From: Desulfobulbaceae bacterium
Lineage (GTDB): Bacteria; Desulfobacterota; Desulfobulbia; Desulfobulbales; SURF-16
Length of the DNA stretch: 64,000 bases
Direction: 5' to 3'
Assembly: GCA_002868945.1 (NCBI GenBank)
Contig: PKTX01000001.1
Location: 18,310 to 82,309 of the forward strand
The notes under the pieces were generated by a model. The model had not been told where the DNA came from and did not search any database. It saw nothing but the letters and a program-made list of their open reading frames with translations. Positions within the stretch are counted from its first letter, which is position 1, and each line of letters opens with the position of its first letter. The translations under genes were made by a program, and so were the position numbers. Positions 36,872 through 58,811 of the stretch are shown here, piece after piece.

Positions 36872-37129
36872 GGACGTTTCATCCAGCTAGGCCTGCACAT
36901 ATTCCACCCAGCACCAGAACCGAAATCCATCTCCTTTCTCCGCTATTGACAGGCGGTCTGAAATGGCTGCCGGCAGTCGGTAAATAATGTTTTTTTTTGT
37001 TCAAGACAGCTGTCGGCAAATAAAGTAGAAAGAAGCCCTGTATTGACTTGCGAGCTGCTTTCCGGCCGGACAAGGCCACTCCTTCGGCACCTGCATGGGG
37101 AGAACCGGGGCGGACAATGGCGCTTAAAT

Positions 37130-37272
37130 AGTGTCTGTCCAGAAATAGGTCATTTCGTTCGAGATCAAGGACTGCGAGAAAAATAAGCGCAGGCATATAT
37201 CTGATATTCCGAGCATTATTTTTTGAGCATGACGCCGAGATCGGATGAAAGGGCCATTTCTGGACAGGCACT
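37130..37272. mobile_element. C-type MITE-like element, complete copy (C1)
   Basis: Terminal inverted repeats AGTGTCTGTCCAGAAATAG and (complement) AGTGCCTGTCCAGAAATGG match 17/19. The element is flanked by the direct repeat AAAT (37126-37129 and 37273-37276). Confidence 0.85.
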
Positions 37273-37374
37273 AAATAGTTGCTGAGGTGGAGAAAACCTC
37301 TCAACGTAGCCGGCATTGTGTGGTAATTTCTTCCTTTCACGCATGCAGTATCCATAGCAGAGAAAAAGTGATTA

Positions 37375-56564: not shown

Positions 56565-56652
56565 CTTTCTATGCTATGGTTGCTTCATTTTTTTGAAGCG
56601 GGTATATTGGCCGACTCTTGTTCCGGAAACTCTTCTTTCTAGTCACTCAATC

Positions 56653-58119
56653 ATGACCATATCGATATATAACACCAAAACAGGTAAAAAAGAACCGCTC
56701 TCCACCATCAAGGAAAAGCATATCAATCTCTATGTGTGCGGTATCACGGTGTACGACTACTGCCATCTGGGCCATGCCCGCTCCACCCTGGTCTTTGACA
56801 TGATTGTCCGCTACCTGCGCTATCGCGGCAACACAGTGACCTTTATCAGAAATTTCACCGACATTGATGACAAGATCATCAAACGCGCCGCAGAGCAAGG
56901 TACCACAACCGAGGAACTTTCCAACCGTTTTATCGAAGCCTTCCATGAAGACATGGCAAGTCTGGGCAACCTGAAACCTGATCTGGAGCCCAAGGCCACC
57001 GAACATATTCCCGAGATTGTGGATTTGATCCAAACCTTGATCGACAGGGGACTGGCCTATGAGCAGGATGGCGATGTCTACTACCGGGTGGAAAGGTTTG
57101 CCAACTATGGCGCCCTTTCCGGCCGTAATCTGGCGGATATGATGGCCGGTGCCCGTATTGCCGTGAGCGACAAGAAGGAAAACCCCATGGATTTTGTCCT
57201 CTGGAAGAGCAGTAAGCCGGGCGAACCCACCTGGGACAGTCCATGGGGAGCGGGTCGCCCCGGCTGGCATATCGAATGCTCGGCCATGTCCAAAAAATAT
57301 CTGGGCGACACCTTTGATATCCATGGCGGCGGCAAGGACCTTATCTTCCCCCATCATGAAAACGAAATTGCCCAGAGTGAAGGGGCGAGCGGCAAGCCCT
57401 TTGTCAACACCTGGATCCATCACGGCTTTGTCACCATCAAGGATGAAAAGATGTCCAAGTCCCTGGGCAACTTTCTCACCATCCGGGAGCTGCTGGAGCA
57501 ATATCCGGCCGAGGTCCTGCGCCTCTTTGTTTTTTCGGCCCATTATCGCACCCCCCTCGATTTTACCGACCAGGCCATGCAGGATGCCGAGACCGGCCTC
57601 GATCGCCTCTACGGCTGCCTGGCCACCCTGACCCGCTTGCCGCGCCAGGGGGATGCCGATGCGGCCGACACGGTGGGCAAAAAAGACCGCCAGAAGCTGG
57701 AAAAGCTGGAGGAGCGTTTCTGCAAGGCCATGGACAACGACTTTAACAGTGCCCAGGCCCTGGGCCATATCTTTGATACGGTGAAGGCCGTCAATAAGAT
57801 TGCCCAGCATCTGCCCCCTACCCCCAGCCAGCAGACCTTGGACCGCCTGCGCCAGGCCGGCGCCACCCTTAAACAACTGGGTGATTTGCTGGGCATCCTG
57901 CAGCAGGACCCGGTGGCCTACCTCACGGCCAAACAGGAGAAGATTCTGTCTGCCATTGATCTCAGCCCCCAACAGATCGAGGCGCTGATTGCCGAACGCA
58001 ACAAGGCCCGTGACGAAAAAGACTGGACCCGGGCCGATGAGATTCGGGACCGTCTCTTGAGCCGGAATATCGAAATTAAAGACGCTGCCGGCGGTACCAC
58101 CTGGCAGGTGAAAATCTAA
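56653..58119 (+). CDS. cysS: cysteine--tRNA ligase
   Basis: HIGH-type CHLGHARS and KMSKS motifs. Start moved to ATG 56653. Confidence 0.95.
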   Translation: MTISIYNTKTGKKEPLSTIKEKHINLYVCGITVYDYCHLGHARSTLVFDMIVRYLRYRGNTVTFIRNFTDIDDKIIKRAAEQGTTTEELSNRFIEAFHEDMASLGNLKPDLEPKATEHIPEIVDLIQTLIDRGLAYEQDGDVYYRVERFANYGALSGRNLADMMAGARIAVSDKKENPMDFVLWKSSKPGEPTWDSPWGAGRPGWHIECSAMSKKYLGDTFDIHGGGKDLIFPHHENEIAQSEGASGKPFVNTWIHHGFVTIKDEKMSKSLGNFLTIRELLEQYPAEVLRLFVFSAHYRTPLDFTDQAMQDAETGLDRLYGCLATLTRLPRQGDADAADTVGKKDRQKLEKLEERFCKAMDNDFNSAQALGHIFDTVKAVNKIAQHLPPTPSQQTLDRLRQAGATLKQLGDLLGILQQDPVAYLTAKQEKILSAIDLSPQQIEALIAERNKARDEKDWTRADEIRDRLLSRNIEIKDAAGGTTWQVKI

Positions 58120-58229
58120 GCAAAGATGTGACGAATGACCAACACCGCATCTTGCGGCCATCTACAGGGTGAACACATCGCTTTTGAATATGCCGCAACC
58201 GGCGGTACTGCTGATCAGTTGCCCTTTAG

Positions 58230-58635
58230 CACCCCGTTGAAAAACGTAGCGGGCGCAGCTGAGGCAAGGAAAAATGAGGCGAAAAATGCGCGCCCGCAGG
58301 AGGTAAGGGAGCCTGCGACACTCCGAGTACCTTTGGGGTGCAGTTTCCATGTGGTTCAGGCGCATTTCGGAGTCTCGCTCCGCTCGCTTAGCTCAAGCCG
58401 AATTTTAACGACGCATCAGCAGGTAGCGAACGACGAGAGACCTTGGCGCCTAGGAGCCTGCCGGACTTAGACATAAATCTACTGCAAATTCGAAAAATCG
58501 GCCCATATCCCCATGGCTTTTCGTTAAATAGCTCTGCTATTCGCCTCAAATCCATGTAAATCTGGCCTTGATTTTTCGAAATTTCGCTACGATTCTCTAA
58601 GTCCGACAGGCTCCTCGTGGTTTTTCAACTGGCTG
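58230..58635. mobile_element. D-type MITE-like element carrying a nested insertion (D3)
   Basis: Terminal inverted repeats CACCCCGTTGAAAAAC and (complement) CAGCCAGTTGAAAAACC. Flanked by the direct repeat TTAG (58226-58229 and 58636-58639). The interior is collinear with D1 except for the 164-bp insert at 58452-58615. Confidence 0.85.
58452..58615. mobile_element. E-type MITE-like element nested inside D3
   Basis: 20-bp terminal inverted repeats AGGAGCCTGCCGGACTTAGA and (complement) AGGAGCCTGTCGGACTTAGA match 19/20. There is an internal palindrome around TTCGAAAAATC. This is the only copy I saw in the window. Confidence 0.8.
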
Positions 58636-58689
58636 TTAGACATTTCCGGACAGTTACCAAAAGATGGCCCTGCAAGGGACCAATTACCC

Positions 58690-58718
58690 TTGACAAACCA
58701 GCCCCAGCTTGCTAAATA
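58690..58718 (+). promoter_or_regulatory. sigma70-like promoter for tRNA-Gln(CUG)
   Basis: TTGACA, 17-nt spacer, TAAATA. It ends 19 nt upstream of the tRNA 5' end. Confidence 0.6.
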
Positions 58719-58737
58719 AGGCATCTCGACATCGTGC

Positions 58738-58811
58738 TGGGAGATCGTCTAATGGTAGGACTGCAGACTCTGACTCTGCCTATCGGGGTTCGAATCCCTG
58801 TCTCCCAGCCA
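58738..58811 (+). tRNA. tRNA-Gln (anticodon CUG)
   Basis: Manual cloverleaf: TGGGAGA acceptor, anticodon arm GCAGA-CTCTGAC-TCTGC, T arm CGGGGTTCGAATCCCTG, and an encoded CCA. Confidence 0.9.

Follow-up and report, generated by a model that had tools for sequence, protein, structure and literature searches.

The spacer between the cysteinyl-tRNA synthetase gene (cysS) and the gene of tRNA-Gln(CUG) in a Desulfobulbales genome raises the question of how it came to be filled with repeated DNA, in which order the repeats arrived and whether they matter for the flanking genes. The locus lies in a window of 64,000 nucleotides, which is the whole stretch of DNA analyzed and corresponds to C48:18310-82309 of a 3.7-Mb MAG in 83 contigs. 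The relatives of its cysS, 80-89% identical, are found in Desulfurivibrionaceae MAGs and place the source genome in that family. It is very probable that a spacer of ~84 bp was enlarged here by two successive cut-and-paste transpositions of MITEs, D and then E, that were moved in trans and are likely neutral. The features of the locus, in order, are the following.

56593-58119, + strand: cysS (cysteinyl-tRNA synthetase) ORF, stop codon TAA at 58117-58119
58120-58225: 106-bp spacer segment without a second genomic copy, absent from the 84-bp spacers of relatives
58226-58229: left TTAG target-site duplication of D3
58230-58635, + strand: D3, D-type MITE split by E, ends CAsCCCGTTGAAAAA / TTTTTCAACkGGCTG
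58450-58453: CTAG, left copy of the E target, made of D3 sequence; CTAG is the consensus flank on both sides of the E copies of the genome
58454-58613, + strand: E core, 160 bp, fold-back MITE, 18-bp ends GAGCCTGyCGGACTTAGA
58614-58617: CTCG, degenerate right copy of CTAG with one A-to-C difference
58636-58639: right TTAG target-site duplication of D3
58641-58657, + strand: C-like 17-mer CATTTCCGGACAGTTAC, agreeing in 15/17 positions (13/13 exact) with the right terminus of C-type elements
58690-58718, + strand: tRNA promoter, TTGACA, 17 nt, TGcTAAATA, kept in relatives
58738-58811, + strand: tRNA-Gln, anticodon CUG (ARAGORN; 59 bits on the Rfam tRNA model)

The cysS–tRNA-Gln spacer and its counterparts in relatives

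A sequence-only reading of this DNA had described a 500-bp spacer, almost entirely repeat-derived, and a near-consensus tRNA promoter. The actual distance from the cysS stop codon to the tRNA is 618 bp, of which D3, E and the duplications make up 414 bp (67%); the rest includes two single-copy stretches, 58120-58225, for which a search for a repeat origin gave no genomic matches (blastn-short, even at an E-value of 1), and 58658-58737, with no other copy anywhere in the genome (blastn-short). The description of the promoter holds for the -35 box, a perfect TTGACA (58690-58695), and fails for the -10 box, TAAATA, which agrees with TATAAT in only 3 of 6 positions. The -10 box has a TGn extension, and the resulting TGcTAAATA (58710-58718) is conserved in five relatives. 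The promoter at 58690-58718 was missed by a strict promoter scanner, and no canonical terminator or promoter was called on the + strand within the D3+E composite. Two minor features of the spacer were also recorded. A 111-aa ORF (58135-58470) that begins in the 106-bp single-copy segment and enters D3 is probably spurious, and the minus strand carries, at 58665-58682, a terminator-like hairpin (TGGTCCCTTGCAGGGCCA, then TCTTTTGG) that is directly upstream of the tRNA promoter and faces cysS; sites of this kind are no more numerous than in shuffled sequences.

In four genomes of the same genus, 84 bp separate cysS from the same tRNA-Gln(CUG) gene. These spacers are empty of D and E, and all four keep CTTGACAAAGCAGGCCCrGCTTGCTAAATA. 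By this comparison, the ancestral spacer lacked D, E, the C-like 17-mer and the 106-bp single-copy stretch. Alleles of the same species lacking E were sought by scanning metagenome contigs for exact matches to the single-copy flank, and none turned up. The orthologous spacer of a fifth same-genus genome, L014, contains a nucleotidyltransferase and NTase_sub_bind gene pair (L014:3971-4671) which, together with the intact promoter in the window, points to a recurrent and tolerated landing site. The pair itself (Polbeta/NTP_transf_2 + NTase_sub_bind) resembles a toxin-antitoxin pair. Because all of the inserted DNA is upstream of the tRNA promoter, which is intact, the insertions in the spacer are most likely neutral passengers.

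Nested D and E elements and their relative ages

D3 starts at 58230 with CACCCCGTTGAAAAAC, ends at 58635 with TTTTTCAACTGGCTG and is enclosed by the TTAG duplication that had already been recognized (58226-58229 and 58636-58639). Without E it is ~242-245 bp long. The breakpoint, previously placed by collinearity with other D copies, is borne out by the alignment of D3 minus E to the D consensus, in which 223 of 244 columns agree (91.4%) and the junction neither gains nor loses a base; the 22 bp around the E insertion contain 5 differences from the consensus, above the 9% average of D3. Genome-wide, 53 D hits of at least 150 bp were found, including 30 near-full-length copies, all without E. 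The family has the ends CAGCCCGTTGAAAAA / TTTTTCAACGGGCTG, and most of the 30 copies are flanked by a clear 4-bp duplication of the form NTAN (CTAA, TTAG, TTAT, ATAA, GTAA, TTAA, ATAG). An internal module of D3 (58287-58347; query positions 58-118, GCGCGCCCGCAGGAGGTAAGGGAGCCTGCGACACTCCGAG...) also stands alone in many other genomic repeats, which gives the repeat families a mosaic look with modules in common. Distant Desulfobulbales families (G036, G038) have the core of this module at 97% identity.

The segment that interrupts D3 had been reported as 164 bp (58452-58615) with near-perfect inverted termini, and its arms, AGGAGCCTGCCGGACTTAGA / TCTAAGTCCGACAGGCTCCT, are indeed complementary in 19 of 20 positions (95%). 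This span comprises the E core and 2 nt of CTAG on each side. The 20-mer has no other occurrence in the window and was matched in none of 100 shuffles; in the family consensus the terminal repeats are complementary in all 20 positions, and the subterminal sequence inward of the TIR reads ...GGACTTAGACATAAATCTACTGC. The BLASTN search of the genome that had been suggested for further copies revealed a dispersed family with 15 full-length members, 91-98% identical to the window copy. In total, ~21 long copies (mutually 91-100% identical) are accompanied by shortened derivatives, and the copies other than the full-length ones comprise at least 4 broken at contig ends, 2 split by C elements, 7 shortened and 4 solo ends. 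Nearly every copy is flanked as CT/AGGAGCC...GGCTCCT/AG, that is, by CTAG on both sides. With ends and a CTAG target that are not those of D, E constitutes an element type of its own, as the sequence-only reading had held. The shortened derivatives (C41:83-120, C46:105-150, C44:14396-14473, C50:74957-75034, C76:5629-5706, C79:15783-15858 and C64:57594-57692) are 38-99 bp long and consist of little besides both terminal repeats, and those of ~78 bp look like a small subfamily. At C30:44298-44330 and C38:109408-109446, an E end is directly adjoined by a ~30-bp sequence, GTGCAGTGTATCACTTAAAGwTTTGTATA, that could be another repeat family or a transduced flank.

The sequence-only reading would be refuted if the 164-bp segment regularly belonged to the interior of a longer form of D. 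This is extremely improbable, given the 30 near-full-length D copies without the segment, the presence of E within D in only three copies, each at a different D position (~232 in the window, ~36 at C15:38562 and ~28, in the opposite orientation, across the C8/C83 contig ends), and the ~20 occurrences of E outside D with its own CTAG flanks, also in genomes without a detected 250-bp D form. Since D copies without E exist and removal of E restores the colinearity of D, E is an insertion into D, and the claim of at least two insertion events is upheld. A second alternative is an assembly chimera, in which a D copy was joined into the repeated E and the assembly exited at another locus. E does break the assembly, as at least 8 contig ends of this 83-contig MAG stop inside E copies. 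However, after a random mis-join D would not continue at the exact next consensus position (12 nt vs 12 nt) and a chimera would not restore matching TTAG at both outer ends, while the single-copy flanks on both sides correspond to the conserved cysS / tRNA-Gln neighborhood of the relatives, so that an artifact of this kind is very improbable. Finally, E might have entered D elsewhere, and the D+E composite might then have moved into the spacer by the outer ends of D. With these ends and the TTAG duplication intact, the 406-bp composite could be mobilized by a D-type transposase, but the genome contains no second D copy with E at the same position, and the divergence of D3 from its consensus (8.6%), compared to 2.4% for E, fits a resident D that was hit later; a joint arrival is considered improbable.

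Two separate insertions at this locus are thus preferred. A D-type MITE of ~245 bp, derived from an IS1182-like parent, would have entered a TTAG site and duplicated TTAG, after which the 160-bp E-type MITE would have entered a CTAG site 18 bp from the right end of D3 and duplicated CTAG, the right copy of which would later have decayed. The right duplication, CTCG instead of CTAG, and the raised number of differences in the 22 bp of D3 around the insertion are counted as points against this reading. As neither element has a transposase gene, both would have been moved in trans. The order of the events, with an old resident D and a later E, fits the identities to the respective consensus, 97.6% for the window copy of E (4 differences in 164 positions; two genome copies equal the consensus) and 91.4% for D3, D copies averaging 92%. 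In general, nested insertions of transposable elements have the same properties as E in D3: the younger element splits the older one, its removal restores colinearity, and the arrangement is used for relative dating. There is no difference in principle; here, both nested partners are MITEs of IS1182-like parents, and several nesting directions (E in D, C in E) occur in one genome.

The further suggestion that E is the youngest event in the window is not established, given the C-type copy at 37131-37271, which is equally close to its own consensus (97.9% vs 97.6%), and C found inside E elsewhere. The C-type elements (37125-37277 in the window and ~45 genome copies) have the ends GTGyCTGTCCrGAAAT and are flanked by 5-6-bp direct repeats starting with TA (TAAATA, TAACTA, TACTTA, TAGGTA), which differ from the 4-bp AAAT duplication formerly assigned to the copy at 37125-37277. 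Outside the window, two E copies (C62:2982-3296 and C64:7002-7336) are each split by C at the same internal site, with inserts of ~193 and 166 bp and a duplicated TAAATA; C therefore transposed after E in these cases, and nesting runs both ways. In relative terms, the D family predates E, and C is no older than E.

A "solo C terminus" had also been proposed next to D3. The 13-mer on which it was based, CATTTCCGGACAG, is present at 58641-58653, but a solo terminus is unprovable with a match of 15/17 and no C-like sequence adjoining. CATTTCCGGACAGTTAC starts one base after the TTAG of D3, and the sequence across D3 from it shows no likeness to C. The C family end ...GGGCCATTTCyGGACAGrCAC was found 263 times in a search that tolerated up to 3 mismatches, some of the C ends, a few besides this one, are isolated, and the 13-mer is calculated to occur by chance ~0.1 times genome-wide. 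Identification of the 17-mer as a truncated C remnant is favored, with some reserve.

Insertion sequences related to the parents of D and E

E has no coding capacity: the longest frames that reach into it measure 55 aa (minus strand) and 111 aa, the latter entering from the single-copy spacer segment, and a length of 160-164 bp is too short for a transposase gene. Its size (under ~500 bp), inverted repeats, multiple copies, ends common with autonomous insertion sequences and empty sites are those of a MITE, and sequence comparison identifies E as a putative MITE of an ISAzo2-like IS1182 insertion sequence with CTAG as the target. The E end motif, GGAGYCTGTCGGACTTA, occurs in 82 of 401 Desulfobulbales genomes. 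In three genomes, inverted E-type ends 1581, 1661 and 1662 bp apart enclose a 452-456-aa transposase. These elements (L091-L093) belong to the IS1182 family and have GGAGTCTGTCGGACTT ends with CTAG flanks, as in the L092 copy, tttgCTAG-GAGTCTGTCGGACTT...AAGTCCGACAGACTC-CTAGaatt; the transposase gene of L093 is interrupted. Transposases of this type score 368 and 370 bits on the NF033551 IS1182 model (cut-off 270) and match Pfam DUF772, DDE_Tnp_1 and DDE_Tnp_1_6. Members of the IS1182 family are ~1.3-1.95 kb long with short inverted ends (ISfinder), a range into which the spans of L091-L093 (1581-1662 bp) fall. Among named elements, the closest is ISAzo2 from Aromatoleum aromaticum EbN1, with 59% protein identity, which has the ends CAGCCTGTCGGGCT and CTAG on either side.

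ISAzo2 and the 1.6-kb L091-L093 elements resemble E in their ends, (C/G)AGCCTGTCGG(G/A)CT, and in the CTAG directly on both sides, and the Desulfobulbales copies have 16-17 nt of the E end in common with it. Unlike E, they are autonomous elements of 1.55-1.66 kb that encode a DDE transposase of 452-456 aa. As they have no common sequence with E past the terminal 17 nt, they appear to be cousins of E's parent rather than the parent itself, and no parent insertion sequence with the internal sequence of E beyond the 17-nt end was found, which is also counted against the two-insertion reading. The genome of the window yielded no E-type transposase in a tblastn search with the L091 transposase or in a scan with NF033551, and only ordinary genes, with no autonomous parent, lie beside the solo E ends on C11, C38, C69, C75 and C62. 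Genome scans with NF033551 and PF01609 detected only an unrelated IS5 (C57), a truncated D-type gene (C37) and two other DDE genes with no MITE ends nearby. As a possible vector for spread, plasmids of PLSDB were searched for E, with no match. Variant ends in three other genomes (G005, G006, G054) were considered as full-length insertion sequences and ruled out; these are diverged 162-bp MITEs.

The truncated D-type gene links D to a parent of the same family. At C37:1275-2229, an exact D end (CAGCCCGTTGAAAAA, 2215-2229) is followed by a truncated 300-aa ORF with an IS1182-like transposase N-terminus of ~250 aa and then by unrelated sequence. With the IS1182 model, this ORF reaches 98 bits (model positions 4-270), below the cut-off because it is partial. 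The element represents a decayed autonomous D-type insertion sequence, and D is a MITE of an IS1182-like parent. With no E-type and only truncated D-type transposase in the assembly, both window copies, D3 and E, are probably immobile now. The nested structure, the family membership of its parts, the empty sites and the match of the E ends to insertion-sequence ends are established from the sequence.

Among other dispersed repeats, the ERIC/IRU elements of enterobacteria and the Correia elements of Neisseria are imperfect palindromes of ~100-170 bp in intergenic regions, which can form transcript hairpins and are sometimes nested or found beside promoters. They duplicate TA and have no known parent transposase. 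The ends of E, in contrast, can be recognized as IS1182-type, and its target is CTAG. The string flanking E is the same whether 4-bp CTAG or 2-bp TA is duplicated, including the E insertions into D copies, and the two models are indistinguishable by sequence because CTAG is palindromic. A 4-bp duplication is favored by analogy, since the D duplication is 4 bp long and 4-bp direct repeats are made by ISPse1, a trapped IS1182-family element of 1653 bp (PMC3281130), and by MITEPye1 of Paracoccus yeei (PMC11578231). MITEPye1, listed in ISfinder, is an IS1182-derived MITE that transposases of the IS1182 family presumably mobilize in trans; its ends are 18 bp long, its direct repeats 4 bp, and it folds into a long stem-loop (PMC11578231). 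Like E, it is non-coding and intergenic, with 18-bp IS1182-like inverted ends and a long stem-loop, a likeness by description between elements from hosts of different phyla. MITEPye1 has 1-3 copies per chromosome. For E there are ~21 long copies in addition to the shortened derivatives, the CTAG target is strict, and the distribution extends over many Desulfobulbales genomes. E in D3 is thus a previously known kind of element, comparable to MITEPye1.

The E hairpin and the spread of the family

The predicted fold of E is a near-complete hairpin (-64.2 kcal/mol, z = -9.9). Among 14 diverse E copies, changes on both sides were found in 18 of 60 stem pairs, compared to 6.0 +/- 1.7 in shuffles (0/500) and 2-7 in slid controls, with much of the signal supplied by the divergent copies G033 and G034. 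All but two of the 18 pairs (16/18) belong to the inner stem, beyond the terminal repeats. Selection on fold-back, transposase sites in both arms or homogenization of the arms are possible causes of such paired changes. In a scan with Rfam, only tRNA matches were obtained and no RNA family was assigned to E.

Paired stem changes are unneeded by a purely selfish element, which is a further point counted against the two-insertion reading. They raise the alternative that the hairpin has been kept by selection acting on RNA or DNA, at this locus as a stabilizer of the cysS 3' end, a terminator or a barrier to read-through into the tRNA promoter. The predicted stability, the excess of both-side changes, the ~90% identity of E across different families of the order and a T5 run starting 6 nt past the E stem would agree with this model. 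On the other hand, matching changes in the arms are also expected from binding sites of the same transposase or from homogenization by fold-back repair, the divergent G033 and G034 copies carry much of the covariation signal, E matches no Rfam family, the T run is 5 nt off the stem and was not called a terminator, and relatives live without any such element at the cysS–tRNA-Gln locus. A selected function is therefore judged unlikely. The broader model, in which the E family has a ~60-bp stem under selection and would have been repeatedly recruited in intergenic regions as a terminator, transcript stabilizer or protein-binding site, including downstream of cysS, is likewise doubtful. Enlargement of the spacer by two MITE insertions, likely neutral, remains the explanation adopted here.

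Elsewhere in the order, in families represented by G272, G091 and G071, E copies match the E consensus at 89-93% identity. That E copies are far more alike than their host genomes points to horizontal spread or to a constraint on the hairpin. In one genome of another family, G272, 117 matches to the E end motif were counted, mostly in 162-bp pairs with slightly different ends (GGAGTCTGTCGGATTTA / GGAGCCTGTCGGACTTA), a burst of this MITE family far larger than that in the genome of the window. A literature search for MITEs in Desulfobulbales found nothing specific.

The nested MITE is what ordinary transposition yields in a Desulfobulbales genome rich in repeats. At the cysS–tRNA-Gln locus it is of little consequence, as the promoter is untouched and relatives manage with an 84-bp spacer. 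The analysis provides the ends, the target and the parent type for two abundant repeat families, D and E, which break Desulfobulbales MAG assemblies and create spurious ORFs such as 58135-58470, and it reveals an ISAzo2/IS1182-type MITE that is dispersed across an order of sulfur-cycling bacteria with environmental importance.
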